Positions 3 through 62,947 of a stretch of DNA of 64,000 nucleotides are shown piece after piece. The stretch spans positions 199,966 through 263,965 of the forward strand of contig JAUIBK010000001.1 in assembly GCA_030428205.1 (NCBI GenBank), written 5' to 3'. The position numbers and the translations under genes were made by a program. How positions within the stretch are numbered: position 1 is the first letter of the stretch; every line of letters starts with the position of its first letter. The notes beneath the pieces are model-generated. The model ran no database searches, had not been told where the DNA came from, and saw nothing but the letters and a program-made list of their open reading frames with translations. The DNA is from a bacterium (GTDB lineage Bacteria > Bdellovibrionota_C > UBA2361 > RFPC01).

Positions 3-265
3 TTGCTGCGCAAATGAAGGGATTCGCAGTATTGTTTTGAAGGTTCGAATCCTGCTCCCCGCAGGGCTAAAGTTTTCCGGATAACAAAAGGATCAACCGG
101 CCCGGAGCGGCGAGCGCGAAAAACTGGTGGGAGCAGGATTTCTTTTGCGTTGCAAAAGAAAAGGATTCGCAGAGTTTCTGGATGTTCGAATCCTGCTCCC
201 CGTAGGGCCAAAGCTTTCCGGCCTCCCGATGAAAATAACCGGGCCGGAGTGCCGAACGCGAAAAC
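3..265. repeat. Two tandem ~150-nt degenerate repeat units; each ends in a copy of the 3' end of tRNA-Tyr, and the second unit runs into the intact tRNA-Tyr
   Basis: Segments 3-80 and 153-233 are about 80% identical (gcaaa.gaa..ggattcgcag...gttcgaatcctgctcccc g.agggc.aaag.tttccgg). The 3' parts are also similar (ccgg...cgcgaaaactggtgggagcagga), giving a truncated tggtgggagcaggatttc at 127-144. Confidence 0.6.
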
Positions 266-348
266 TGGTGGGAGCAGGATTCGAACCTGCGTACGCTTAC
301 GCGAGCAGATTTACAGTCTGCCTCCTTTAGCCACTCGGACATCCCACC
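266..348 (-). tRNA. tRNA-Tyr (anticodon GTA), long variable arm, CCA not encoded
   Basis: Reverse complement reads ggtggga...cagactGTAaatctg...gcaggttcgaatcctgc tcccacc a. Acceptor stem 7/7 bp, T-loop TTCGAAT, long variable arm typical of Tyr. Confidence 0.85.
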
Positions 349-551
349 ATATTAAGAAAAGCTCAGTTGAGCTTTTCTTAATATGGTGCCCTGAGCGAGC
401 AAAGCGAGTCGAAGGGCAGTCGCCTTCTATTCATTTGCCTCAGCTCAAGAACGATACACTCCGCAGGCGCTTTCAGAGAGAACTATAGTAGAGTCCTTCG
501 ACTCACTGCGTTCGCTCAGGACGCTCCATTTTTTTTGCAAAGCAAAAAAAA

Positions 552-5379: not shown

Positions 5380-8300
5380 ATGGCAAGAAAAATCAAGAGT
5401 AACCTTCGTCTCCGCCGCAACTATTCAAAAATTGAAGAGGTTGCAGAGATTCCCCATCTCGTTGCCATTCAAAAAGAATCATACGAGCGTTTTCTCCAAG
5501 CCGATGTTGAGCCAGAAAAGCGAGAAGAGATCGGCCTCGAAAAAGTTTTCAAATCTGTTTTTCCTATTTCAGATTACAACAACACTTCCACTCTAGAGTA
5601 CGTTTCGTACACGCTCGGTAAGCCGAAGTATGACGTAGATGAGTGTCGTGATCGTGGCATGACTTGGGCAGCGCCCCTTCGTGTAACGATTCAACTTGTT
5701 CTCTGGGATGTTGATCCTGACAGTGGCGCGCGAACATTGAGTGCACTGAAAGAAGACGTTGTGTATTTTGGTGAAATCCCTTTGATGACAGAGAAGGGAA
5801 CGTTCCTTATTAACGGAACAGAGCGTGTTATCGTGAGCCAACTTCACCGTTCTCCAGGTGTCTTCTTTGCGCATGATGACGGAAAGAGCCACGTTTCCGG
5901 GAAGCTTCTCTATAGCGCCCGTGTGATTCCTTACCGTGGCTCATGGATCGATCTTGAATTTGATATTAAAGACATTTTACACGTTCGTATCGACCGTCGC
6001 CGTAAGCTTAACGTAACGGTTCTGCTCCGTGCGCTTGGGTATGGCAGCGATGACATCCTTGAGATGTTCTACAATACGGACACTATTAACTTCGGTAAGC
6101 GAGGGCTGGTAACAAAGGAATTTGTTGCCTCTCAGCTCGAAGGACAAAAAGCCTATAAAGAGATTAAGTCCGGCTCAAAAGTCCTCTGTAAAAAGTCTGG
6201 TAAGTTTAACCGTGCTGTTATCCGCCGCATGAAAGAGGCGGGAATTACAAACATCGAAATCGATCCTGAATCACTCTCAGGAATGGTTGTTGCCGATACC
6301 GTTCTTCAAGCTGAAGAGGATGTTGTTCACCCTGAAACCGGTGAGATTATCGCCGACTCTGGTGAGCTTCTGATTGGCTGGGATGTGATTAAAGAGCGGT
6401 TTGGTGAAATCGTTGAAAACTTCCCCGAAGACAAAATTCGTGAACTCTTCGAAGATGTCGAAGTTCTGATCTACGCTGGTGAAGAACTCACACCTGATAA
6501 GGTAAACGCTAAAGGCGAAGTGGTTGAGCAGGGAACACTCTCTCTTCTTCAAAGCCAAGGTGTTGAACATCTCCGTGTGCTTTATCTTGAAGATAATCAC
6601 ATTGGCGACGCTCTTCTGAAGACTCTCCTCACTGATAAGATGGATCCTGAGCGTGAAGACATTTACGCGCGTCTTGCAGGCTTTCCAACAACAGAGAGCT
6701 TGATAGAGATTTACCGTCGCCTTCGACCAGGAGATCCACCACGTCCTGAAACAGCGGCAGCTACATTTAAGAACCTCTTCTTTAATGCAGACCGATACGA
6801 TCTCTCTGATATCGGCCGCTATAAGATGAATCACAAGCTGTACGTCTCTCAAGGAAAAGAGGCGCCTTCCCTTGAGCAAGGGGTGCTTTCTGAGGGGGAT
6901 ATCGTCGAAACCGTTCGCTACCTCCTTAACCTCCGTAACGGAACAGATCCTGTTCGATACTCTATTGATGATATCGATCACCTCGGTAACCGTCGTGTGC
7001 GTGCTGTTGGTGAGCTGATTGAGAACCAATTCCGAATCGGTCTCGTTCGTATGGAGCGTGCTGTTAAAGAGCGTATGGGGATGCAAGATGTCGAAACGCT
7101 TGTTCCACAAGACCTTATTAACTACAAGCCGGTTGCTGCCGTCGTGAAAGAGTTCTACGGCTCGTCGCAACTTTCTCAGTTTATGGATCAAACCAACCCT
7201 CTCTCAGAGATCACGCACAAGCGTCGTCTCTCTGCGCTTGGGCCTGGAGGTTTGACCCGTGATCGTGCTGGTTTTGAGGTACGTGACGTTAACCCAACTC
7301 ACTACGGTCGTATCTGTCCGATTGAAACTCCTGAAGGACCAAACATCGGTCTTATTTCCTCGCTTGCTGTGTATGCGCGTGTGAACGAGTTTGGGTTTCT
7401 TGAGACTCCTTACCGTGTCATCGATAACGATAGCAAAGTAACAGGTGATGTTGTTTACCTCTCAGCACTTGAAGAAGAACAAGAGACCATTGCTCAAGCG
7501 AGTGCTGAAGTAGCTGATGATCAATCGTTTGCCTCAAATGCTATCTCAGCTCGTGCGAAGGGAGAATATATCTTGGCTGCTCCAGACGGGGTTACCAAAA
7601 TGGACGTCAGCCCGAAGCAGATTGTGTCTGTTGCTGCTGCGCTGATTCCTTTCCTTGAGAATGATGATGCGAACCGTGCCCTGATGGGATCGAACATGCA
7701 ACGCCAAGCTGTTCCGTGTCTCCGTACACAAGCTCCGCTTGTTGGAACGGGAATGGAGCAAACTGTTGCTCGTGATTCTGGAGCCACGGTCGTTACGAAG
7801 CGTTCTGGTAAGGTCGTTTCAGTTGATTCAGAGCGTATCGTTGTTCGTGCTGATAAGACGACGGACGATCCTCTCGATACCGGTGTTGATATTTACAACC
7901 TCGTTAAATACCGACGTTCAAACCAAGATACGTGTATTAACCAACGGCCTATTATCGCTCCTGGTGAAAAAGTCACTGCTGGAGAGATCATCGCCGATGG
8001 ACCTAGCACGGAGATGGGTGAACTTGCTCTCGGTCAAAATGTTGTTGTCGCCTTTATGCCGTGGCACGGATACAACTTTGAGGATTCGATTCTCATCAAC
8101 GAAAACTTGGTGAAAAACGATATCTTCACCTCTATCCACGTTGAGTCTTTCGAGGCTGTTGCTCGTGATACGAAGCTCGGAAAAGAAGAGATTACACGTG
8201 ATATTCCAAACATCGGTGAAGACGCACTAAGCGATCTCGATGAGTCTGGAATTATCCGCATCGGTGCGGAGGTGAGCCCTGGTGACATTCTCGTTGGAAA

Positions 8301-15302: not shown

Positions 15303-18300
15303 TTGCTATACTCCCAGGGACGTGTCTTTCCTTGGGAGCTAGTGCCAGTGCCTTTCCGCCTTCTTTTCACAGTTTTCTTTTTTCTGATTTCACACTCGGT
15401 AGCTGCTGAGCAGGTCGACTTTATCTTCAATGGAGATCTGAGCATAAATTGCCATGACGGCACACTCGCTTCCGAGGGGCAATCGTGTGCGAAAAGTGTT
15501 GTTCTGAGTTCTGACTGGAGCATGAGGATCCTCCGAGAAACTCATGCAACCTCTGAGCTTATGCTCTCAGGGAGTGGAGGATCTATTAATACCACTATCC
15601 CTGGATGGACTCCTCGGGATAGTTTCTCTGTGCCTGGAGATCGAATCCGATTAGAGATCTTTCAAAATGCAGGTGCAAGTGGAGATAGTTGCTTTTATCT
15701 CGGAGATGTTTGGGCACACCTTAGAGATCCTCATGACCCTGAGACGAGTTTCTGTCGTTTTTTAGTCTACAAAGACGTTGGTGAAGTCTGCCTTCCTCCT
15801 GGCGGAGTAGCTTCGCAAATGATCTTTGTGCCGCATATTCCTGATGGATGTGATGGGAATCTCTCTGCTTCTGCCACTGTTGAGAACGAATCGATCGAGG
15901 TCGGAGAGGAGCTCAGTACGAGAATTTCTCTCCTCACGAGCACCACAGGTGTTATCACTCGGGGGTGTTGGCCAGGGGTGTTGCACTATAAAGATCTAGC
16001 CTTAGGAAAGGCAGATATTGGCACTCCTCTCGATGAGACTACCTATGGGTATCCAAGCTCTATTACACCAGGTGGCTGCACTCCTGACTACCCATATGTC
16101 ATGAATCCTCATAGTGAACGACATGTCGAGTACGTTGGCCCTGTAAACAAGCCTGGAGTTGTTTCACTTATTCCTGAGGTTCCTTTCTATTCCGTCTTTG
16201 AAACTCCAGATGCTACTGGGCATATGGTTTTTAGTGATCTGAACACAACCGTGGTCACTGTTACAGGAGGCTTAAGGATTCAGGCATTAGCACCAGAGTC
16301 TATACCCGCTGATGGTGAGGTATTTGACATTCAAGTCTCTATCACAAATCAAGGTCAGAAGTCCGCAACATTACCAGAAGCTAACTGCTACGACTATGTG
16401 TATCAAGTTGCCTGTTCTCAGCCTGATCAGGAGTGTTCAAAAACTCAAGTTATTCTGCCGCTTTCAAATCAACCTACAATGGCGGAGGTAACTCTTGCTG
16501 GTGGTCAATCACACTCTTTCACCTGCTCTTACCTAGCTATATCTGAGGGAAGTGTCGACTTCTCGTTTGCAACGACTTGGGAACATCAAAGTGGTAACCC
16601 CGTTTTTACTGATTATTCCTGTGACTCCCATCCTCAAGGAGGAGCACGGTGTTTTGAGCCCACTTTTCAAACTGATAACCGCACAGTTGTTCGAGTCGGT
16701 ATAGGGCCTGGTGGTGAGTGTGGTGATGGGATTATCGATGAGTCTGAGCAGTGTGATGGTGGAGACTGTTGTACGGAGGAATGTACCTACAGAAAATCAG
16801 GTGAACTTTGTCAGGGCGAGAGTATTTGTGCAGAGTCAAATGTTTGTGATGGGCTCTCTGGAGAATGCCGCGGGGCAGATGAAGATCCTAGTATTGAATC
16901 GGTAGAGTTCTCCTTGCTTACTCCTTTAGGTTCGAGCCCAGTGGTGCTGAGTACTGGTTGGGAGTTTGGTGTGAACGCGACAGCTCAGTGTTCAAATGGA
17001 CTCACGAGAGATCTTTCGAGTTATGTAGAGTGGTCAGGAACTGGGACGTTTTCACCTTCGCAGGGAGTTCGCTCTCGTCCTTCGTTTTCGTCACCGGGAA
17101 TCAATTCTATTCGATTTGAGTATGCAGGAGCTTCGCTTTTTGCAGATGAAGTGTCTGTTACGACAAAGTCAGCAAGTGGTTTTGCCGCTGTCGGTGACGA
17201 GGCTTTTTGTCCAGCAGATAGTCATGGAGCCCCCACTGATCCACATGCTGTACAAGGCCCTATTCTTCGAGGAAGCACCTTAGTTACCCTAGGTGGGGCA
17301 CCTGCTGCGCGTATCGGAGATCCAGGAGAGCATGCTGCTTGCTCTGGGCCGAACTCCTTTGTTGTAGCTGCTGGAGATCCTGAGGTCTCAGTTCTTGGAA
17401 GAGCGTTAGCCAGACATGGAGACGCCACAAGCCACTGTGGCGGGAATGGTTCTATCATTTCACCAAAGCTCTCTCTTCCATCAACGTTATCTCTCCGATC
17501 TTCAGGAAGTGGGCAGGTCTCTGGGCGTGTTACTGGTCCAAACGGCGCACCACTTTATGGTATCGCGGTGTCTCTTTTTGATGGAACTGGCAATATTTAT
17601 ACAGCGTGGTCTGATGAGTTAGGCGACTATGTTATAGATAGCCTTCCCGCCGGGAGTTTTACACTTGAATGTAACGGTGCAACGGTGGGTTTACCTGGTA
17701 TCATGCTTAGAGATGGCGTAGGTCTACCCCCTAAGACTTTGAGTCTTGGTGAGGGAGCATCTCTTGTGGGACAAAACTGCACGCTTCCAACCGGAGGTGT
17801 TCTTGCTGGGGTTGTTACCGATACTGCCTTATCTCCGGTAAGTGGCGTTTGGGTCCACGCACGCCCTACGGATCCCACATTTGTGGGCTCGTCTGTACTC
17901 ACTTCCGCTGACGGCTCTTACTCTCTTTCTGGTCTTCTCGAGGGTACCTATCGAGTCTTCGTCTCTGGTAGTGAAGAAGGATTTGAAGACACCTATTATC
18001 CCAACTCAAGAAAGTGGGAACAAGCTCGTATCCTCTCCGTTAAAAATGGCCAAACACAAAAAGGATTAGCTATTCGACTTTCGCTTTTGAATCCTTACGA
18101 ATCTTGTTCTTCTACTTCGCTCATACTCCAAGAGATTCGCTTAGCTCAACTGTTTCGTGAGCAACACAGCTTGGTAACTAAAGCGTCACGTGTGTATAAG
18201 AAAGCTGCGCGTGGTATTGGAGAAAAATTTAAAAAGCGAATAAAGAAAGCAAAGAAGAAAGCAAATATATTGCTTGAAGATTCAAGTGCTGCACTCCAAG

Positions 18301-18563
18301 AACTCCCTCCTGTATCATATTCGGATTGTGGAGGAATTTCACCAGAATGCGTTTCAACTTCTAACGCGAGTGTAAAAAGCTCACTCCTGCTCTTCTCTCA
18401 ACGTCTCTTTCGCGAGACAAAGAAGCTTGTTGCTCGGGAAAAGAAACTTCGAGGGAGTAATACAAAGAGGGCCAAGAAAACGAGAAAGAAAGCACGAAAA
18501 TTTAAAAAAGAGTTATTCTCGCTTGTAGAGGCACTCCCGGGTCAAACCGTGAGCTGTAGTTGA
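15303..18563 (+). CDS. large secreted multidomain protein: N-terminal beta-rich region, Myxococcus-type cysteine-rich repeat, Ig-like domain, PAAR motif domain, two carboxypeptidase-regulatory/transthyretin-like beta-sandwich domains, Lys-rich C-terminal tail
   Basis: PAAR motifs GSTLVTLGGAPAARIGDPGEH...EVSVLGRALARHGDATSHCGG at nt ~17190-17470. Cys-rich ECGDGIIDESEQCDGGDCCTEEC at ~16705-16880. GVVTD...SADGSYSLSGLLEGTYRV TTR-like repeats. C-terminal KKAKKKA...KRAKKTRKKARKFKK. The likely true start is the GTG at 15342 or 15348, giving the signal peptide MPFRLLFTVFFFLISHSVAA with GGGAG 9 nt upstream. Confidence 0.75.
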   Translation: MLYSQGRVFPWELVPVPFRLLFTVFFFLISHSVAAEQVDFIFNGDLSINCHDGTLASEGQSCAKSVVLSSDWSMRILRETHATSELMLSGSGGSINTTIPGWTPRDSFSVPGDRIRLEIFQNAGASGDSCFYLGDVWAHLRDPHDPETSFCRFLVYKDVGEVCLPPGGVASQMIFVPHIPDGCDGNLSASATVENESIEVGEELSTRISLLTSTTGVITRGCWPGVLHYKDLALGKADIGTPLDETTYGYPSSITPGGCTPDYPYVMNPHSERHVEYVGPVNKPGVVSLIPEVPFYSVFETPDATGHMVFSDLNTTVVTVTGGLRIQALAPESIPADGEVFDIQVSITNQGQKSATLPEANCYDYVYQVACSQPDQECSKTQVILPLSNQPTMAEVTLAGGQSHSFTCSYLAISEGSVDFSFATTWEHQSGNPVFTDYSCDSHPQGGARCFEPTFQTDNRTVVRVGIGPGGECGDGIIDESEQCDGGDCCTEECTYRKSGELCQGESICAESNVCDGLSGECRGADEDPSIESVEFSLLTPLGSSPVVLSTGWEFGVNATAQCSNGLTRDLSSYVEWSGTGTFSPSQGVRSRPSFSSPGINSIRFEYAGASLFADEVSVTTKSASGFAAVGDEAFCPADSHGAPTDPHAVQGPILRGSTLVTLGGAPAARIGDPGEHAACSGPNSFVVAAGDPEVSVLGRALARHGDATSHCGGNGSIISPKLSLPSTLSLRSSGSGQVSGRVTGPNGAPLYGIAVSLFDGTGNIYTAWSDELGDYVIDSLPAGSFTLECNGATVGLPGIMLRDGVGLPPKTLSLGEGASLVGQNCTLPTGGVLAGVVTDTALSPVSGVWVHARPTDPTFVGSSVLTSADGSYSLSGLLEGTYRVFVSGSEEGFEDTYYPNSRKWEQARILSVKNGQTQKGLAIRLSLLNPYESCSSTSLILQEIRLAQLFREQHSLVTKASRVYKKAARGIGEKFKKRIKKAKKKANILLEDSSAALQELPPVSYSDCGGISPECVSTSNASVKSSLLLFSQRLFRETKKLVAREKKLRGSNTKRAKKTRKKARKFKKELFSLVEALPGQTVSCS

Positions 18564-18864: not shown

Positions 18865-20947
18865 TTGTCAGATATAACAGGGGACCTGCAAAGGTACAGA
18901 AACATCGGAATTTTTGCTCACGTTGATGCCGGAAAAACAACAACGACCGAGCGTATCCTTAACCTTACCGGAAAGATTCATAAGCTTGGTGAGGTACACG
19001 ACGGAGAAGCTACAACAGACTTTATGGATCAAGAGCGTGAGCGGGGGATTACCATCCAGTCTGCTGCTACTAGTTGTTCTTGGAACGATCACCGTCTCAA
19101 CATTATTGATACTCCCGGGCACGTGGACTTTACCATTGAGGTATACCGTAGTCTGAAAGTGCTTGATGGTGGTATTGGCGTTTTCTGTGGATCTGGTGGT
19201 GTTGAGCCACAATCGGAAACAAACTGGCGCTATGCAAACGACTCAAAAGTAGCCCGCCTTATTTTTGTAAATAAACTTGACCGAGTTGGGGCTGACTTCT
19301 TCCGAGTAGTGAATCAAGTCAAAGATGTCCTCGGTGCGAAGCCTCTTATTATGACGCTTCCTATCGGAGCAGAGAGTGAGTTTAGAGGTGTCGTGGATCT
19401 CATCACACGTAAAGCTTGGGTGTGGGACGAGTCAGGCGATCCTATGAAGTTTGAGATCCAAGATCCACCAGCAGACATGGCGGATCAGGTTGAGAAGTAC
19501 CGCGAAGAGATGATCGAAACAGCTCTTGAGCAAGATGAAGAAGCTATGGAAGCATACCTCGAAGGTACTGAGCCTAGCGAGGAGGTCATCAAGAATTGTA
19601 TTCGTAAGGGAACAATTGCTCTCGACTTTTTCCCAGCATTTTGTGGCTCAGCATTTAAGAACAAAGGGGTGCAACCTCTTCTTGATGCTGTTGTTGATTA
19701 CCTTCCGAACCCAACGGAAGTCCCACCACAACCTGAAATTGATCTTGAAGGACACCCAACAGGGGAGTTCGCTGTTGCGTGCTCTTGCCTTTAAGATCAT
19801 GGAAGACAGGTACGGAGCACTCACGTTCCTCCGCATTTACTCTGGAAAGCTTGAGAAAGGTACTACGGTTGTAAATACCTACACAGGCCGAAAAGAGCGA
19901 ATCGGTCGGATTGTTGAGATGCACGCGGATTCTCGAGAAGAGCTTAGCTCTGCAAAAGCAGGAGACATCGTTGCTGTACTCGGAATGAAAGAAGTTCAAA
20001 CTGGGCACACGCTTGCTGACCCTGATAACCCAGCAACGCTTGAGCCAATGGTTTTCCCTGATCCAGTTATCTCCATCGCGATTGATACGAAGGAGAAAGG
20101 AGACCGGGATAAGCTTGGAGTTGCACTCTCAAAGATGACTTCGGAAGATCCATCGTTTCGTGTTGAGACAGATGAGGAGACGGGAGAAACTATCCTCAAA
20201 GGGATGGGAGAGCTTCACCTTGATATTAAGATCGACATCATCAAACGCACCTACGGTATTGAGTGTGTCGCTGGTGCTCCTCAGGTTGCTTACCGTGAAA
20301 CAATCACGAAGCGAACAGAAGATAGCTACACACACAAGAAGCAAACGGGTGGATCTGGCCAGTTTGGTAAGATTGACTTCGTTATCGAGCCAAATGAGCC
20401 TGGTGAAGGATTTGAGTTTGTTTCTGAGATTAAAGGTGGAAACGTACCAAAAGAATTTTGGCCTGCTATTGAGAAAGGTTTCAAGCTTAGCCTTGAAGAA
20501 GGCGTGCTTGCAGGCTTTCAATGTATCGATGTGAAGATCACATTGGTCGATGGTGGATACCACGCGGTTGACTCCTCTGCCGTTGCTTTTGAGCTCTGTG
20601 CGAAAGGTGCTTACCGTCAGGTCATGCCAAAGGCTGGGCCTCAGATTCTTGAGCCGATCATGAAGGTCGACTGTTACGTTCCTGAAGATTACGTTGGTGA
20701 TACCATTGGAGACCTTAACCGTCGTCGCGGTATGATTAACTCTCAGGAAGTTGGTGCTACGGGTGCTCGCATCCAAGCGAACGTTCCTCTTTCAGAGATG
20801 TTTGGTTACATCGGTGATCTTCGAACAATGACTTCTGGTCGTGGTCAGTTCTCTATGGAATTCTTGAACTATCAGCCGTGCCCAACCACGGTGACTGAAG
20901 CGGTCATTAAAGAAGCTCAGGAGCGAAAAGAGGCTCGGAATAAATAA
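18865..20947 (+). pseudogene. elongation factor G paralog (EF-G2-like), reading frame broken by a +1 frameshift near 19780-19790
   Basis: Frame 1 (18865-19794, TTG start) encodes the complete G domain ([20 protein letters not shown]...[12 protein letters not shown]...NKLDR) and ends ...[11 protein letters not shown]. Frame 2 resumes ...[25 protein letters not shown] and encodes domains II-V through 20947. Skipping one G restores [12 protein letters not shown], which aligns to [10 protein letters not shown] of the bona fide fusA. Confidence 0.8.
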
Positions 20948-21284
20948 TTCTTAGCTTTTTAGCGAAAAAGCTTCTTAAGGGCGTGTGATACTTTGGTGGT
21001 ATCATGCGCCTTTTGCATATTTGGTACCTCAACTATACCAGGCGCACTTCAAAACGCCCGGCATCTTGTGATGCATTATCCATCCTGGAGAGCATTTTGA
21101 AGTACGCCTGGTACGGCTGTATCTTCCCTCTCCGACTACGCTCTTCGAGCTTCGTCGTGACCTGAGCTCCTAAGGACCACGTCGTAGCCTTTGGCGAAGA
21201 CGGGCGGGGGATACTCCCCGCCGACGGTGCTTATTGAACCGGAAATTTCAAGTGCGGGGAGTATAACTTTTCGCATTAATCTTA

Positions 21285-21345
21285 GTATTAGCCTCCGCCT
21301 TAGCCTATATCTTGGTTTTGGTCTTATTATTGGTATCAGCCTACC
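21285..21345. repeat. solo half-copy (right arm) of palindromic element family 1
   Basis: gcctatatcttggttttggtcttattattggtatcagcct is about 85% identical to the right arm of the elements at 36757-36799 and 42843-42884. Confidence 0.6.
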
Positions 21346-21796
21346 TCTTCAAAAATGAAAACCACGGAGTTTCCGTAGTTCGCGGAGGACTTCACGGAGA
21401 AGTTTATAAATCCCCCTCCGTGAAACTCTCCGTGTTCGCCGTGCCCTCCGTGGTTTATCCATGAATAATGCGGGTTAAACCGAGACTTGGCCCATGGCCT
21501 CGCTTGGAGAAGAGCCTCCTCTGTCTCCTGTTAAATCGGGTCCCATAAGAGCAAATGGTTAGCTGTGGGCAACTTTTATAACCCATTGATAACTTTAGGC
21601 ATATCATGCGCAAGCCCTCCTGCTTGCCCCCTGCTTCAAATACTGTCAAGAATTTCTTTCCCTGAGTTTGACTCTACCCAAATAGACGTGCTATCACATG
21701 CATTCTCGACTGGCGGGAAACTGCTGGTTGGTGCCCCCTGCGCTTGGTGTAAGCCAGTGAAATAAGGGGTTCCTTCCGCGGTCTTCTGTATTTTTT

Positions 21797-23197: not shown

Positions 23198-25297
23198 GTG
23201 GCTAACCAAGATCTCACAAAAGTGCGAAATATCGGCATCATGGCACACATTGATGCTGGTAAGACGACCACTACCGAGAGGATCCTCTTTTACACGGGGA
23301 TCAACTACAAGATCGGTGAGGTGCATGATGGTGCGGCCACTATGGACTACATGGAACTTGAGCAAGAGCGTGGAATTACGATCACCTCTGCTGCGACTTC
23401 GTGTAAGTGGAGTGGTGGGGAAGGCCAGCTTCCTGAGCACGATATCAATATTATCGATACTCCAGGTCACGTTGATTTCACTATTGAGGTGGAGCGTAGC
23501 TTACGTGTTCTCGATGGGGCTGTAGCTGTTTTTGATGCGGTCAACGGTGTTGAGCCTCAATCTGAAACTGTTTGGCGACAAGCCACAAAGTTTGGTGTTC
23601 CACGCTTTTGTTTCATCAATAAGATGGATAAGACTGGAGCAAACTTTGAGTATGCCGTTAGCACTATCCGTGATCGTCTTGGAGCAAATGCTGTACCACT
23701 TCAGGTCATGATCGGCGCCGAAGGCGATCTTAAAGGTGTTATTGATCTCGTAGAAATGAAAGCCATTGTTTATCACGATGAGACAATGGGAGCGAAGTAC
23801 GATATCGAAGAAATTCCAGCTGAGTACGCTGATAAAGCTGCAAGTGCTAGGGATTATATGCTTGAGTCAATCGCTGAGTGCGATGAGGCTTTCATGGAGA
23901 AATATCTCGGTGGGGAAGAGCTCTCTGCTGATGAGATTCGAGCAACTATTCGTAAAGGTGTTCTCACCCGTGCTATTTTTCCTGTGTTAGGTGGAAGTGC
24001 TTTTAAGAACAAGGGGGTTCAGCCTCTTCTTGATGCAGTTGTTCACTACCTCCCATCACCACTTGAAGTCCCCCCAGTAAGTGGCTTTGCTCCAGACGAT
24101 ACAGAAGAGCAAACACCAATAACACTCGAAGCAAAGTCTGATGAGCCGTTCTCTGCGCTTGCTTTTAAGATCATTACGGACCCATACGTTGGTGTCCTTA
24201 CGTTCTTTCGAGTGTACTCAGGAACACTTGATGCTGGTTCAACAATTTTCAATGCTACCCGTGGTAAAAAAGAGCGTATCGGTCGTATCGTACGTATGCA
24301 TGCTGATAAGCGTGAAGAGGTCAAAACAATTAGCGCTGGAGATATTGGTGCGGCTGTTGGCCTTAAAGAAACGTACACTGGTGATACCATTTGCTCTATG
24401 GAGAAGCCGGTACTTCTTGAAAGTATTTATGCCCCAGAGCCTGTAATCGGTGTGGCGATTGAGCCGAAGTCGAAAGCGGATGAAGAGAAGATGGGCTTGG
24501 CTCTTATGAAGCTCTCAAAAGAAGACCCGTCACTACGCGTGCGCACAGATGAAGAGAGTGGCCAAACAATTATCGCTGGAATGGGTGAGCTTCACCTTGA
24601 TGTGATCAAGAGCCGCCTTGAGAGAGAATTTAGTGTCAACACAACCGTTGGTAAGCCTCAGGTTGCATATCGTGAGACCATTACGGCTCCAATGACTGAG
24701 CACGAGGTCAAATACGCCAAGCAAACAGGTGGTCGTGGTCAATTTGGACATGTCCATATCCGCTTTGAGCCACTAGAGGCCGGCGCGGGCTTTGAGTTTG
24801 TTGACGAGATTAAGGGTGGTGTGATTCCCAAAGAGTACATTCCTGCTGTGAAAAATGGTGTCGAAGAAGCTCTCAAAGGTGGGATCCTCGCTGGATACCC
24901 TGTCATTGATGTCAAGGCGACTCTCTACTACGGGAGTTTCCACGAAGTTGACTCAAGTGAAATGGCTTTTAAGATTGCTGGTTCGATGTGTACAAAAGAA
25001 GGCTGCCGTAAGGCTGGCATAAAACTTCTCGAGCCAGTGATGAAGGTTGAAGTAGTAAGTCCTGAAGAGTTCACAAGCAATGTAGTTGGTGATCTCAACA
25101 GAAGACGCGCTCGAATTCTTGGCATGGAGGCTCGTGCTGGTGCTCAGGTAGTAAAAGCTGAAGTACCTCTTGCTGAAATGTTTGGGTATGCAACAGATCT
25201 TCGTTCAAATTCTCAGGGACGTGCAAATTTTACGATGGAATATGACCACTATGGTGAGGTTCCGTCGCACGTATCTGAAAGTATTGCGGCGAAGTAG
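23198..25297 (+). CDS. fusA: elongation factor G (GTG start)
   Basis: 699 aa with G1-G5 motifs, domain IV loop HEVDSS. Position between rpsG and tuf. Confidence 0.96.
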
Positions 25298-36036: not shown

Positions 36037-36522
36037 ATGGAAAAGCAAGAATCTACATTAGAGCTCTGGTCACTTGCTCCTTCAAAAGGAGCCCGTACCA
36101 ACCGTAAGCGCCTCGGCCGTGGTGAAGCTTCAGGTGTTGGAAAGACCTGTGGAAAGGGAAACAAGGGGCAAAAATCTCGTGCCGGTGCTTCTATCCCAGC
36201 GTGGTTTGAAGGTGGACAGATGCCACTTTACCGTCGTATTGCAAAGATTGGCTTTCAGTCGCGTAAACGACTCCAAGGTATCAACCAGTATCGCATCGTT
36301 GATGTTACAGTGTTGAACGCTTTTGATGATGGCGCTGTTGTTGATGTTGAAACACTCAAGGCTATCGGCAAAGGCCCACGTGGCAATAAGCTTGCTGGTA
36401 TCAAGATTGTTGGTAACGGTGAAGTGACTAAAAAGCTTACCGTGAAAGTCCAAGCGGCAACGGCTGGAGCCAAGAAGGCTATTGAGGCTGCTGGTGGGAC
36501 GTTTGAGGCGGCTGAGAAGTAA
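36037..36522 (+). CDS. rplO: 50S ribosomal protein L15
   Basis: L15 family sequence and position. Confidence 0.93.
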   Translation: MEKQESTLELWSLAPSKGARTNRKRLGRGEASGVGKTCGKGNKGQKSRAGASIPAWFEGGQMPLYRRIAKIGFQSRKRLQGINQYRIVDVTVLNAFDDGAVVDVETLKAIGKGPRGNKLAGIKIVGNGEVTKKLTVKVQAATAGAKKAIEAAGGTFEAAEK

Positions 36523-36642
36523 TTCACGGTACTAAGCTGAAAAATTTTCTATAACGCGAAAGGGCGCGAAGAACACGGAGGAAATTGGCCTTTGTGGTCT
36601 TGGCGCCCTTTTGCGTTGTATGGCATTTTTTTAGGCGGAGGC

Positions 36643-36799
36643 TGATACCAAGAATAAGGCCAAAGCGAAGATATAGGCAAAGGCTGAGGCTGATATAAAG
36701 ACTACGAGCTAGGGGAATCTATTTCCTTAGCCCCAGCCCTTGTCTCAGTCTTGGTCTATATCTTCGCTTTGGCCTTATTCTTGGTATCAGCCTCCGCCT
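36643..36799. repeat. 157-bp palindromic intergenic element (family 1), perfect ~43-bp terminal inverted arms, inserted between rplO and secY
   Basis: Left arm aggcggaggctgataccaagaataaggccaaagcgaagatatag and right arm ctatatcttcgctttggccttattcttggtatcagcctccgcct are exact reverse complements. A homologous element lies at 42719-42884. Confidence 0.85.
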
Positions 36800-36933
36800 T
36801 TGCCTAAGACACCAAAGAAATCTTGCCCTCGTGCTGCTTTTGAGTTTTTTACCTTCCCCTTTCATTCTTCGCCGATGCAGAGTAGTCTAAGAACCCATAT
36901 TTATACCTAAGCTTCATAGGAGAAAGTACTGAG

Positions 36934-38274
36934 ATGTTAGGTGGACTAGGTGATGTCGGGAAAATTCCTGAACTACGAAAGCGTATTTTTTTTACGATTG
37001 CACTTCTTGCAGTCTATCGCTTAGGGATCTTTGTTTCTACTCCCGGAATTGATGTTGAAGCGCTTCGTAACCTATTTGATACAAGCGAAGGCACACTCTT
37101 TGGGATGATTAACATGTTTTCCGGAGGGGCGTTTGAGCAGTTCTCAATCTTTACCCTCGGTATCATGCCGTACATTAGTGTTTCTATTATTATTCAGGTT
37201 CTGACTCCTGCTCTTCCAGCGCTCGAAGCGCTCAAGAAGGAGGGCGAGGCTGGAAGACGCATCCTTACTCGTTATACCCGTCAGGGAACGGTTATCCTTG
37301 CACTTTTTCAAGCCTTTTTTATCTCAGCTGGTCTCGAAAGCCAGGGACTTGTTCTTAATCCTGGTTGGGCTTTTCGTGTTTCAACAATGTTGACGCTCAC
37401 AGCTGGGACCGCGTTTATCATGTGGTTAGGTGAGCAGATAACAGAGAAAGGTATTGGAAATGGAATTAGTATTATCATCTTTGCTGGTATCGTAGCTCGT
37501 ATGCCAGAGGTTCTCTACTATACTGTTGACCTTACTCGCTCTGGTGAGATTCAGCCTCTCGTGATGCTTATGCTCCTCCTTTTCTGCTTAGCAACAATTG
37601 CAGCAATTGTTTTTGTTGAGCGTTCACACCGCAAGATTCCTGTGCAGTACCCACGCCGTATGGTTGGAAACAACATGGCTCAAGCGCAAACACAGTATAT
37701 GCCACTCAAAGTCAATATGGCTGGAGTTATCCCTCCTATTTTTGCCTCAGCCTTCCTCGTTGTGCCGGCAACACTTGGCTCGTTTACCAGCAGTGAAGTG
37801 CTTCAAGACCTTATGGTCTATCTTACTCCAGGGACAGCAAGTTACTCTATTATCTTTGTCGCACTGATTATTATGTTCACCTTCTTCTATGTTCCTATTA
37901 TCTTTAATCCAGAAGAAGTGGCAGAGAATCTCAAGAAGAATGGTGGCTTTGTTCCTACTGTGCGACCAGGAAAACCAACAGCTGATTTCCTCTACAAAGT
38001 GCTCAACCGAATTACGCTTTGGGGCTCAATCTACATCGCAGCTATCTGTATCATTCCGCAGCTTTTCTATTTTGAAATGGGCGCTGAGAGTTTTGCTTAT
38101 GTTTTTGGTGGAACAGCGGTACTCATTGTTGTTGGTGTAACGCTTGATACGGCGTCGCAAATTGAATCTTTTGTTGTTAGCCGAAACTATGAAGCGTTCA
38201 TGAGTCGAAGTACGAAAAAGAAAGGCGGCATCGGTTCGATGAGTTATTCTCGAAGCCGACTCCTTCGTCGTTAA
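36934..38274 (+). CDS. secY: preprotein translocase subunit SecY
   Basis: 446 aa with 10 TM segments and conserved SecY motifs (GIMPYISVSIIIQ...). Confidence 0.96.
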   Translation: MLGGLGDVGKIPELRKRIFFTIALLAVYRLGIFVSTPGIDVEALRNLFDTSEGTLFGMINMFSGGAFEQFSIFTLGIMPYISVSIIIQVLTPALPALEALKKEGEAGRRILTRYTRQGTVILALFQAFFISAGLESQGLVLNPGWAFRVSTMLTLTAGTAFIMWLGEQITEKGIGNGISIIIFAGIVARMPEVLYYTVDLTRSGEIQPLVMLMLLLFCLATIAAIVFVERSHRKIPVQYPRRMVGNNMAQAQTQYMPLKVNMAGVIPPIFASAFLVVPATLGSFTSSEVLQDLMVYLTPGTASYSIIFVALIIMFTFFYVPIIFNPEEVAENLKKNGGFVPTVRPGKPTADFLYKVLNRITLWGSIYIAAICIIPQLFYFEMGAESFAYVFGGTAVLIVVGVTLDTASQIESFVVSRNYEAFMSRSTKKKGGIGSMSYSRSRLLRR

Positions 38275-42108: not shown

Positions 42109-42618
42109 ATGAGACATCAAAAAGCGGGAAGAAAATTTGGCAGAACACCGGCACATAGGAAAGCTATGTTCCGTAATCTTGCTACATCTCTTTTTGAGCA
42201 CGAAAAAATTGAAACGACTTTAGCGAAAGCTAAGGATCTCCGTCGGGTATCTGAGAGGCTTATTACGCTTGCTGGTGAGGACACCGTTCACCACCGCCGA
42301 CAAGCATATGGATATCTCACCAAGAAGAGTGTTGTACATAAACTCTTTGCTGAGATTGGCCCTCGCTTTAAAGAACGTCCTGGTGGTTACACCCGTGTTA
42401 TCCGTACGCGTCGTCGTGCTGGTGATACTGCTGAGATGGCTATGATTGAGCTTGTTCCTGAAGAGTTCAAGCCTAAGAGCAAGTCATCAAAGAAAAAGGC
42501 TGGCTCAAAAGCAAAAGCGCCTGCCAAGAAAGCAGCAGCAAAAAAGAAAGCTGAGCCTGCCAAAGAGAAAGCGAAAGAAGAGGTCGTGGAAGCTAAGGCG
42601 GAAGAGACTGCAGAGTAA
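42109..42618 (+). CDS. rplQ: 50S ribosomal protein L17 with a Lys/Ala-rich C-terminal tail
   Basis: [24 protein letters not shown]... plus [31 protein letters not shown] tail. Confidence 0.94.
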
Positions 42619-42654: not shown

Positions 42655-42692
42655 AAACGCCCATTGGGATTTTTCTCGGTGGGCGTTTTTTT
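42655..42692 (+). terminator. rho-independent terminator after rplQ
   Basis: aacgccca-ttgggatttttctcgg-tgggcgtt followed by ttttttt. Confidence 0.6.
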
Positions 42693-42718: not shown

Positions 42719-42884
42719 CCTAGGCTGATGCCAAGAATAAGACTAAAGCGAAGATATAGGCCAAGGTAGAGGCTGAGATAAAGACCAAGAGCTACGAGAG
42801 TCTCTTTCTTAGGCTTAGCCTCAGCCTGCGCCTCAGTCCTAGTCTATATCTTCGCTTTAGTCTTATTCTTGGCATCAGCCTAGG
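42719..42884. repeat. 166-bp palindromic intergenic element (family 1, second full copy)
   Basis: cctaggctgatgccaagaataagactaaagcgaagatatagg and ctatatcttcgctttagtcttattcttggcatcagcctagg are perfect reverse complements. About 85% identical to the 36643-36799 element. Confidence 0.85.
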
Positions 42885-43016
42885 CCTCTTAAGGATTAGG
42901 TCAGGATGAAGGTTAAAGTCAGGGTTAAGACGTAAGACTTTTTTGGGCAACTCTTTAGTTTTTTCTCGAAAAAAGCCAATATATAGCTTACTTATTCATC
43001 AAGGAGCATAGATACC

Positions 43017-53687: not shown

Positions 53688-53802
53688 ATCATCTGAGTAG
53701 GACAAGGCCTAGTGTGGCGACAAATTAATTTGAAATGACACTAGACCCAGATCCCCGGATACGGGGCAATCTCATAGAAAATGCAGATACCAGGGTGAAA
53801 TT

Positions 53803-54006
53803 TTATAACGCGAAGTACGCGATGTACGCGAAGGGGAGACCTTCGCGTACATCGTGTACTTCGCGTTATAAATTCGTAACCAGGCGGAGTCAAATCAAGA
53901 AGGATAAGCTTAAATCTTGGATAGAGTTCCTGTGTTTAACAGACATCACATTATGGGTTTCATGCTGTTTTCTCTTCTTAACTGGTTATCCAGATTACCC
54001 GTGGAC
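53803..54006. repeat. ~204-bp intergenic repeat element (family 3), begins with a ~31-bp GC-rich hairpin
   Basis: Hairpin tataacgcgaagtacgcgatgtacgcgaagg-ggagac-ccttcgcgtacatcgtgtacttcgcgttata. Remainder about 80% identical to 62782-62947. Confidence 0.85.
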
Positions 54007-54060: not shown

Positions 54061-55029
54061 TTACAGCACCTCCGGATTCACAATCGCCTCAGGCCTCTCT
54101 CCTTGAAAAACAGCAATAGCATTTTGCGCCGCAAGTGTTGCCATCTTTGAGCGGGTTTCAATAGTAGCACTTCCAAGGTGGGGCAGGAGTACGGTGTTCT
54201 CGAGCTCTGCTAGCCCAGGAGCAAGGGCAGGTTCATTTTCGAATACATCAAGCCCAGCACCAGCAATTTCCTTTGAGCGAAGAGCTTGTACTAAGGCTTG
54301 CTCATCAACGATTGGCCCCCGTGCTGTGTTAATGAGAATAGCTGAGTTTTTCATCATCTGGAGTTGATCGGTTCCGATCATATGTTGTGTTTTCTCTGTG
54401 AGCGGAACATGAAGCGAAACAAAGTCTGATTGGGTAAGCAGCTCATTGAGTTCAACTCGCTCCGCATGACACTCTTGCTCGAGTTCTAAGTTGTTCTTTT
54501 GGGCTGTATAAAGAATTTTCATGCGAAAACCAGCTGCACGTCTTGCCACAGCAGATCCTATCCTACCAAGACCGACAATCCCCAGGGTCTTCTCAAAAAT
54601 ATCGACGCCAAGCAGTAGCATTGGTCCCCAGCCGTGAAACTTTCCTGCGCGTAGGAAGTTGTCTGATTCAACTACTCGCCGTGCTGTAGAGAAAAGAAGT
54701 GCCCAGGTCAGGTCTGCAGTTGTTTCCGTAAGAACACCAGGAGTGTTACACACAGGCAGCTTTCGAGATGTTGCTGCTGCTACATCAATATTATTGTAAC
54801 CAACTGCATAATTTGAAATGACGCGGAGTTTTGGATTGGCGTGTACCACCTCAGCATCGATGGTGTCAGTAAGAAGACAAAGAAGAGCATCTTTGTCTCG
54901 AATGCCATCAAGGATTTCTGATCTTTCAAGAACTCGGTCTTCTTCATTGAGTGTTACTTCAAAGTGCTGCTCAAGAAGATCGAGCCCTGCCTGTGGAATT
55001 CGTCTGGTAACAAAAATACTTGGTTTCAC
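54061..55029 (-). CDS. D-isomer-specific 2-hydroxyacid dehydrogenase (glyoxylate/hydroxypyruvate reductase-like)
   Basis: NAD-binding GIVGLGRIGSAVARRA, catalytic R...E...H (HLGSAT). GTG start with GGAGA RBS. Confidence 0.85.
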   Translation of the reverse strand: MKPSIFVTRRIPQAGLDLLEQHFEVTLNEEDRVLERSEILDGIRDKDALLCLLTDTIDAEVVHANPKLRVISNYAVGYNNIDVAAATSRKLPVCNTPGVLTETTADLTWALLFSTARRVVESDNFLRAGKFHGWGPMLLLGVDIFEKTLGIVGLGRIGSAVARRAAGFRMKILYTAQKNNLELEQECHAERVELNELLTQSDFVSLHVPLTEKTQHMIGTDQLQMMKNSAILINTARGPIVDEQALVQALRSKEIAGAGLDVFENEPALAPGLAELENTVLLPHLGSATIETRSKMATLAAQNAIAVFQGERPEAIVNPEVL

Positions 55030-55264
55030 CTGTGTTCTCCGATTATGTATACTCCCCGCACTTGAACATACCGGTTCGAAGCTCTGCAACACTATCAAGT
55101 GTGCCGTGGAAAGTGCCTGAACAGCTCTTACCGATCATGCGGGGGGTTCTGTTTTCCCTCCGGGAATACGGAATGCTTTTTCTATCAGAGCAGCCTTGAG
55201 CGAATCTTTCCACACCATTTTCAAGTACTGCTTGAACTGCAGCACAAGAGGGCTGGGGGGGGGA

Positions 55265-58826: not shown

Positions 58827-58880
58827 GTCTCTGTTTTTTTGGTGAAACCTCTGGAGCGCCTGGGTAGGCTAAGAAGAAAA

Positions 58881-58940
58881 TATAACGCGAAGGCCGCGAA
58901 GTACGCTAAGCTCAACTCTCTTCGCGGCCTTCGCGGTGTA
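58881..58940. repeat. partial family-3-like hairpin element
   Basis: tataacgcgaaggccgcgaagtacgc...cttcgcggccttcgcgg shares the tataacgcgaag...cgcg hairpin motif of family 3. Confidence 0.55.
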
Positions 58941-62437: not shown

Positions 62438-62606
62438 GAACGCATATCAAAATGCCCGCATTTTGATATGCGTTCAGTATCCCCCGGAGGGAAGACAAAT
62501 ACTCCCCGCGTAATCAGTAAGGGCCGATCAGGCCCTTTCCATGGCGTGCTTGATAGTGTTGCAGAGCTTCGAACTGGGTATTCTCAAGTGCGGGGAGTAT
62601 AGAACT
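62438..62606. repeat. structured repeat (family 2): 14-bp perfect hairpin plus atactccccgc/gcggggagtat inverted pair; shares the motif TCAAGTGCGGGGAGTATA with 21245-21266
   Basis: cgcatatcaaaatg-cccg-cattttgatatgcg. ...aaatactccccgcg ... gggccgatcaggccc ... tctcaagtgcggggagtatagaacttt. The same 18-mer occurs at 21245-21262 near gggggatactccccgcc. Confidence 0.7.
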
Positions 62607-62781
62607 TTCTGTAACAATGCGAGTCTTGGTCCGACTCTAGGGCCAGGACCTTATGATACTACTGCGGAAGGGGGTTGAAGAACTTGGTTAACTTCATGAC
62701 TATGGTAATAGCTTTCTCTAAACCCAGATCCATGGTTAAGAGACGATCTCATGGAACCTGCAGGCATTATAGTAAAACTTA

Positions 62782-62947
62782 TAACGCGAAGTACGCGTAC
62801 TTCGCGTTATAAATTTGTAACCAATCAAGGCTAAGACCAAGAAGGATAAGCCTCATTCCAGGGTAGAGCTCCTGTGTTTAACATACTTCACCTCATGGGT
62901 TTCATACTGTTTTCTCTTCTTAGCTGGTTATCCAGCTTACCCGTGGA
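62782..62947. repeat. ~166-bp intergenic repeat element (family 3, second copy; shorter 14-bp hairpin)
   Basis: ataacgcgaagtac-gc-gtacttcgcgttat, then sequence about 80% identical to 53871-54006 (…cctgtgtttaaca.ac.tcac.t.atgggtttcat.ctgttttctcttctta.ctggttatccag.ttacccgtgga). Confidence 0.85.

Follow-up and report, generated by a model that had tools for sequence, protein, structure and literature searches.

Dispersed palindromic repeats form a well-known class of small non-coding elements, several of whose members are close enough to the element described here to serve as a frame of reference. REPINs are non-coding intergenic hairpins of roughly 100-170 nt in which the hairpin is conserved over the sequence, with compensatory changes across the stem (PMC3116915); they are built from GC-rich REP units of about 20-25 nt and are mobilized by RAYT (TnpA-REP), they leave no target-site duplication, and solo half-elements are presumed to be their remnants. 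The Correia elements (CREE/NEMIS) of Neisseria measure about 100-160 bp, have long terminal inverted repeats, and are often co-transcribed with their neighbours, and their folded RNA is bound and cleaved by RNase III (PMC2649163); they are further marked by a TA target duplication, an IHF site and promoter-forming ends. ERIC elements (IRU) of Enterobacteriaceae are imperfect palindromes, some 127 bp long, that occur in transcribed intergenic regions, within operons as well, are flanked by TA, follow a conserved consensus and can alter the stability of upstream mRNA (PMC3184786). MITEs in the strict sense, finally, are deletion derivatives of insertion sequences, i.e. small, non-coding, multicopy elements with terminal inverted repeats that can be recognized by filled versus empty sites.

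The palindromic element that separates rplO from secY in an uncultured Bdellovibrionota bacterium has features of all of these. It shares with REPINs the intergenic hairpin, its maintenance in spite of sequence change, the missing target-site duplication and the occurrence of a solo arm, but its arms are 80-nt arrays of AGRCNR hexamers and no RAYT gene was found among the 20 non-ribosomal open reading frames of the region. Size, long terminal inverted repeats and a probable place within a transcript recall Correia elements, from which it differs in that no TA duplication, IHF site or promoter-forming end was seen, in that its sequence, judged by reading, is dissimilar to the 26-bp Correia inverted repeat and in that the host phylum is unrelated. 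Compared with ERIC, which it resembles in being a palindrome in a probably transcribed intergenic region, its stem is much longer and perfect, its arms show hexamer periodicity, and within the collections searched the family is limited to one uncultured species.

The rplO-secY palindrome

The window, i.e. the whole stretch of 64 kb that was analysed, is chromosomal DNA of a bacterium whose best named SecY relatives are 'Bdellovibrionales bacterium' MAGs, and its + strand carries a classical tuf-secE-nusG-rplKAJL-rpoBC ... rpsLG-fusA-tuf-S10-spc-alpha gene cluster (table 1). This cluster has some peculiarities of its own. The gene for a PAAR-domain protein is an unusual neighbour for core transcription and translation genes, and a second fusA-like gene upstream of rpsL, present as two overlapping open reading frames in addition to an intact fusA, represents a frameshifted pseudogene or else an error of assembly; a non-coding, repeat-filled stretch of 1.3 kb comes after it. 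The unit of the tandem duplication at the left window edge includes a segment resembling a tRNA 3′ end (GGTTCGAATCCTGC), and the sequence of the C-terminal tail of RplQ is not kept in the closest relative.

Table 1. Features of the 64-kb window, numbered from its first nucleotide.
Feature	Position	Strand	Remarks
Tandem duplication, left window edge	20-281		141-bp unit, 1.8 copies, 80% matches; overlaps 3′ end of tRNA-Tyr
tRNA-Tyr	265-349	-	
Gene for 1086-aa protein	15303-18563		PAAR and carboxypeptidase-regulatory-like domains; between rpoC and fusA-like gene
fusA-like gene, first open reading frame	18865-19794		GTP_EFTU domain
fusA-like gene, second open reading frame	19526-20947		EF-G domains II-V
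Third repeat family	21211-21266; 55048-55147; 62501-62601		~55 or ~100 bp
Copy 3, solo arm	~21268-21357	-	13 hexamers, without inverted partner
CACGGAG hairpin	21359-21456	-	related to second hairpin family
Intact fusA	23198-25297		
rplO	36037-36522	+	
Terminator-like hairpin	36540-36630	+	'ATAACGCGAAG / CACGGAG' family; directly 3′ of rplO, followed by T7 run
T-run TTTTTTT	36624-36632	+	adjoins left end of copy 1
Copy 1, palindromic repeat	36633-36799	none	167 bp; inverted-repeat and folding analysis
Unique sequence	36800-36845		46 nt
secY leader	36846-36933	+	~85% identical to closest relative (L058); AGGAGAA ribosome-binding site
secY	36934-38274	+	
RplQ C-terminal tail	42500-42618		long, Lys/Ala/Glu-rich
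rplQ intrinsic terminator	42655-42688	+	canonical; 15-bp stem and T7
Copy 2, palindromic repeat	42719-42884	none	166 bp; perfect 41-nt arms; 88% identical to copy 1, same orientation
Purine tract	42888-42940	+	right flank of copy 2; weakly 6-nt-periodic (TTAAGG ATTAGG TCAGG...; 221/5000 shuffles, weak)
Second hairpin family, other members	53798-53875; 58875-58913; 62774-62823		
110-nt direct repeat	53896-54005; 62838-62947		87% identical
2-hydroxyacid dehydrogenase open reading frame	54061-55098	-	annotated 5′ end overlapped by third repeat family

Between rplO and secY lie 411 bp, in line with the roughly 410 bp of the original prediction, and this spacer consists of four parts: a terminator-like hairpin, the palindrome, a piece of unique sequence and the secY leader. 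The palindrome had been described as perfect, 157 bp long (36643-36799) and bounded by exact 43-bp arms. A long inverted repeat with perfect outer arms does exist there, but it begins further upstream, its perfect arms comprise 44 nt each (36633-36676 and 36756-36799) with no possibility of outward extension, and its centre is imperfect, since the arms are 95% complementary over 56 nt each and pairing is only partial in the central ~79 nt. With G-U pairs counted, pairing reaches about 57 bp. As DNA the element folds with -66.1 kcal/mol, compared with -20.7 +/- 3.0 in shuffles (z = -15), and the entire spacer folded as RNA still gives z = -14; this structure is far beyond chance. Strand-specific selection at the RNA level, considered on account of an asymmetry between G-U and A-C pairs, was rejected as the energy difference between strands is inconsistent (-118.6 versus -111.7 kcal/mol for the two strands of copy 1, -103.7 versus -104.1 for those of a second copy after rplQ).

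The element is non-coding. Copies 1 and 2 have no open reading frame with a common start; the frames that overlap them begin outside, at positions with unrelated sequence. Coding hypotheses, i.e. an Arg-X dipeptide frame, a hydrophobic frame or an in-frame insertion like that of the Rickettsia palindromic elements, were rejected for want of a common start and because of stops in every frame across the full element. Neither a promoter-like nor a terminator-like consensus was found at copy 1, which is not followed by the U-tract of an intrinsic terminator, the stem being succeeded by TTTGCCTAAG; the rplQ terminator, by contrast, was detected. Across the window only tRNAs reached the gathering thresholds of Rfam 15, and at copy 1 the only matches were sub-threshold ones to precursors of plant miRNAs, long hairpins of a generic sort.

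Further copies and the hexameric arms

As originally predicted, a relative of the element is present after rplQ, where a full second copy begins 31 nt downstream of the rplQ terminator and shares the 398-bp rplQ-fabI spacer with it. A half-copy that had been placed at 21285-21345 is also real in that a single arm is found there, though it turned out to be longer; this solo arm (copy 3) matches the left arm best, in inverted orientation (81% over 81 nt), and sits within the 1.3-kb non-coding stretch, between the CACGGAG hairpin and a 'TACTCCCCGC' element with terminal inverted repeats (21211-21266). The 22-nt core pattern of the arms (AGGCTGATNCCAANAATAAGNC) identifies exactly five arms in the window, where 0.01 would be expected by chance, and neither an arm-profile search of the window nor inspection of 5.6 kb beyond its edges produced any additional copy, so that two full copies and one half copy are the count for ~70 kb of this species. 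The purine tract to the right of copy 2 may represent an arm that has decayed.

The arms have a pronounced internal order. Identity within an arm at lags of 6, 12 and 18 nt is 0.45-0.56, compared with ~0.25 at other lags (0-5 of 5000 shuffles), and each arm can be read as 13-14 degenerate AGRCNR hexamers with the consensus A (92%), G (77%), R (98%), C (72%), N, R (83%), or, in other words, as NAG triplets with 3-nt spacers. No other sequence in the entire 64 kb is as strongly period-6 as these arms. Tandem Repeats Finder did not report the hexamer arrays because their units are too degenerate, and the periodicity is therefore shown by autocorrelation.

What the copies keep is complementarity, not sequence. 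In the outer stems each of the five pairs that differ between copies 1 and 2 differs in both of its bases, and the outer 41 pairs are all intact; 94% of cells are paired, as against 35-46% with the partner slid, although a shuffle control for compensated changes is weak with only two sequences (18/500). The imperfect central part and two + strand G-U pairs are likewise common to both. Because the arms stay perfectly complementary within each copy while the copies themselves differ, it is the hairpin that is the maintained unit.

All three copies also occur in a similar local setting. Each of them, in its own orientation, lies 0-31 nt 3′ of a terminator-like hairpin, i.e. the hairpin after rplO for copy 1, the rplQ terminator for copy 2 and the CACGGAG hairpin on the minus strand for copy 3. 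A run of five to seven T residues is found within 14 nt of the left end in three of three copies and at no right end, against a background of 3-7% per intergenic position in a test that is post hoc; at copy 1 this run doubles as the outer right arm of the upstream hairpin, whose arms hold ATAACGCGAA, GGGCGCGAAG and CACGGAGG motifs. Judged from three copies, the one-sided T-run and the post-hairpin position point to one of two possibilities: the T-run may belong to the element, or insertion may be directed to DNA close to terminators, which is a safe haven.

Altogether this is a repeat-rich genome: the window contains at least three further families of short palindromes or inverted repeats, and copy 3 is located between two of them. 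The hairpin after rplO belongs to a second hairpin family (table 1), to which the CACGGAG hairpin next to copy 3 is related and which is also represented in a relative (L026, 9869-9949). Its arms are made of short tandem sub-repeats (ACGCGAAGT three times, CACGGAG, CGCGGAG) with flanks AAATTTTATAA/TTATAAATT; some members are terminator-like and situated between convergent genes, and one is found between divergent genes. Members of a third family have terminal inverted repeats of the form ATACTCCCCGC...GCGGGGAGTAT; one copy adjoins the solo arm, and another overlaps the annotated start of a 2-hydroxyacid dehydrogenase gene. Both copies of a 110-nt direct repeat follow a CGCGAAG-type hairpin at a distance of ~20 nt, which yields a composite repeated unit of ~210 bp.

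Presence and absence in relatives and other assemblies

The original prediction assumed that rplO and secY are normally only a few bases apart. This does not hold for the relatives of this bacterium, in which the spacer is 61 bp (L030, SecY 83% identical), 135 bp (L026 and L027, 82%), 484 bp (L028, GCA_020434565.1, 81%; positions 6882-7365) or 51 and 37 bp (L056 and L057, 75-77%). The spacers of L026 and L027 contain only a CGCGGAG-type hairpin and a T-run, and the long one of L028 is unrelated and non-palindromic. In the closest relative (L058; GCA_020434525.1, contig JAGRAQ010000058.1), with 95% SecY identity, the contig begins 240 nt upstream of secY and shows no palindrome, and homology to it ends 46 nt downstream of copy 1. 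As to the second site, rplQ and fabI are 6 bp apart in L058 and 96 bp apart in L028. Looking for an empty site in related genomes, as had been proposed, thus gave the same answer in L030, L026/L027, L056/L057 and L058, none of which has a copy between rplO and secY, and the relatives examined at 95, 83, 82 and 81% SecY identity lack the element at the equivalent sites. The strict synteny in all relatives that would have marked an ancient operon feature is therefore not seen. Since the relatives are without a copy at these sites, the element appears to have been gained specifically by this species at both operon sites, with the relatives' spacers being too diverged to fix the insertion point to the nucleotide. 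The terminator-like hairpin 3′ of rplO, by contrast, is older than the element; in L026, which lacks the latter, a hairpin of the same type occupies the rplO-secY position.

Directly upstream of the secY leader, L058 has a hexamer array of its own, i.e. a 100-nt period-6 purine array (positions 41-140; AAGGAA AAGGAG AGGGAT ...) with about ten GGA motifs and a lag-6 identity of 0.56 (0/5000 shuffles), just before which the contig begins. Homology of this array to the arms in the window, beyond a likeness in composition, was rejected, as the match is no better than with hexamer-block shuffles. Non-homologous hexamer arrays upstream of the secY leader in two species are most conservatively regarded as indicating a permissive hot spot.

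In wider searches the core pattern gave seven single matches in one-per-species genome contigs of unrelated taxa and 17 in JGI metagenome contigs, and a 21-nt version lacking the first A gave 22 matches in viral contigs. These were rejected as copies of the family and are attributed to chance or to unrelated sequences, because the matches extend over only ~22-38 nt (by BLAST and arm profile) and most of them fall on viral contigs, within what appears to be a conserved coding region. A distant-mode blastn search with the element against plasmid and phage records gave no match, and a literature search on palindromic intergenic repeats of Bdellovibrio produced nothing relevant.

Chimeric assembly can create palindromes, and short-read Logan contigs of the same species do stop 29-30 nt into the arms, which raises the question of whether the palindrome could have arisen during assembly of this MAG. 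A perfect inverted repeat, however, makes a de Bruijn unitig end about k-1 nt inside the arm, so a real palindrome is expected to leave exactly such ends. Here, moreover, two diverged copies are internal to a long contig, and the left junctions of both are present at 100% identity in assemblies from two other samples of the same species (L001, L031). As independent assemblies reproduce these junctions, an artefact of this particular assembly is ruled out, and we consider an artefactual origin of the palindrome extremely improbable. The contig breaks were also rejected as evidence of copy number, since a perfect inverted repeat alone explains them.

Nature of the element and its possible effects

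Our data are best explained by assuming that the element belongs to a small family of dispersed palindromic repeats of the MITE/REPIN/ERIC kind, which is non-coding, restricted to this species and non-autonomous and which is, or formerly was, mobile; we assign this explanation a probability of roughly 0.7. Of the possibilities raised originally, a MITE-like insertion has come out as the best supported one in so far as the copies are non-coding, occupy three unrelated intergenic sites in a genome with several other small palindromic repeat families and are absent in relatives. At 166-167 bp, with perfect terminal arms of 44 nt (copy 1) and 41 nt (copy 2), no shared open reading frame, two full copies and one half copy in ~70 kb and empty sites in relatives, the element resembles a MITE. 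The target-site duplication that was to be expected from such an insertion is missing, since there is no direct repeat at any copy, neither between the flanks of copy 1 (...GCATTTTTTT and TTGCCTAAGA) nor between those of copy 2 (...GCTTTTTTA and GCCTCTTAAG). In addition, the whole element is a foldback, the T-run is at one end only and no parent insertion sequence is known. Given the missing target-site duplication, and since no transposase turned up among the 20 non-ribosomal open reading frames of the window, membership in the strict MITE class is unsupported. As the arms are not REP-like either, we assign the element to no named family.

We infer that the family has moved from its presence at these sites versus its absence from the same sites in relatives. 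Insertion into the rplO-secY spacer would have occurred after the split from the nearest sequenced relatives, at a point directly downstream of the pre-existing terminator-like hairpin and upstream of the conserved ~90-nt secY leader with its own ribosome-binding site. The element may have spread, or may have been selected, via a folded single-stranded intermediate, as proposed for REPINs, and an IS200/IS605-type mechanism, which has also been proposed for the latter, fits the absence of a target-site duplication; alternatively, arm-to-arm conversion could be the source of arm complementarity. Transcripts reading through from rplO would then include a double-stranded stem of ~57 bp, which by analogy with Correia and ERIC elements is a likely entry point for RNase III or RNase E, and cleavage of Correia RNA by RNase III may be the best analogue for an effect of copy 1 on the rplO-secY transcript. 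Such cleavage of read-through transcripts seems plausible from these analogies. We regard any such cleavage, however, as a side effect tolerated by the cell and not as the reason for the presence of the element.

This distinguishes a dispersed repeat from a hairpin that is selected as a cis-acting RNA element of the spc transcript, i.e. an RNase III site or stability barrier that would uncouple secY-adk from the ribosomal-protein genes. The element does lie in sense orientation inside a probable co-transcript, its predicted stem of ~57 bp is very stable as RNA (-118.6 kcal/mol), compensated changes as well as two shared + strand G-U pairs preserve that stem, and Correia and ERIC elements have effects of this type (PMC2649163, PMC3184786). 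A dedicated role in the spc operon is nevertheless unlikely, because the relatives manage without the element, because copy 2 is preceded by a canonical terminator while copy 3 consists of a lone arm in non-coding DNA, and because RNA folding energy shows no consistent strand preference; a terminator-like hairpin, moreover, is already present upstream. More doubtful still is the idea that the 13-14 AGRCNR hexamers of each arm are binding-site arrays for an oligomeric nucleic-acid-binding protein, which would compete with the hairpin and regulate downstream expression. The 6-nt periodicity is highly significant, it is the strongest of its kind in the window, and L058 has its non-homologous purine array at the equivalent position, just before the secY leader. 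There is no known candidate protein, however, the hairpin would base-pair the array, and the other two copies have no common downstream gene; the periodicity could stem from hexamer slippage and the coincidence in L058 from the permissive hot spot. The regulator TRAP binds (G/U)AG repeats. A specific form of this idea, in which an oligomeric RNA- or ssDNA-binding protein acts like TRAP on the hexameric arms, competes with the hairpin and thereby sets the expression of secY-adk relative to that of the ribosomal-protein genes, with the L058 array reflecting a conserved requirement and not a shared hot spot of insertion, would be quite improbable.

An independently transcribed small RNA gene, which had also been suggested, or a gene for a small peptide such as a type I toxin would account for the stable predicted structure, and a frame in the right arm reads, by eye, as a hydrophobic 24-residue segment in both copies. 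Yet this frame has no start codon in either copy, the overlapping open reading frames start outside the element, at places of unrelated sequence, and neither a promoter- or terminator-like site nor an Rfam match above threshold nor conservation in relatives speaks for a small RNA gene, so that there is hardly any probability left for an origin of this sort.

Returning to a dispersed palindromic repeat as the preferred explanation, the element looks ordinary in kind apart from its arms of 6-base units. With it, a new family from a poorly studied, uncultured Bdellovibrionota lineage joins a well-known class, and the S10/spc/alpha ribosomal-protein cluster is seen to tolerate such insertions beside an existing terminator-like hairpin. 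Arms that have stayed perfect despite 12% divergence between copies are a possible clue to how foldback repeats spread without a DDE-type transposase, and the strict 6-nt periodicity of the arms together with the T-run at one end may be a further clue to the same DDE-free spread. If the hairpin were cleaved in vivo, the rplO-secY copy would provide a natural case of a selfish repeat that re-wires the stoichiometry of secY versus the ribosomal-protein genes.
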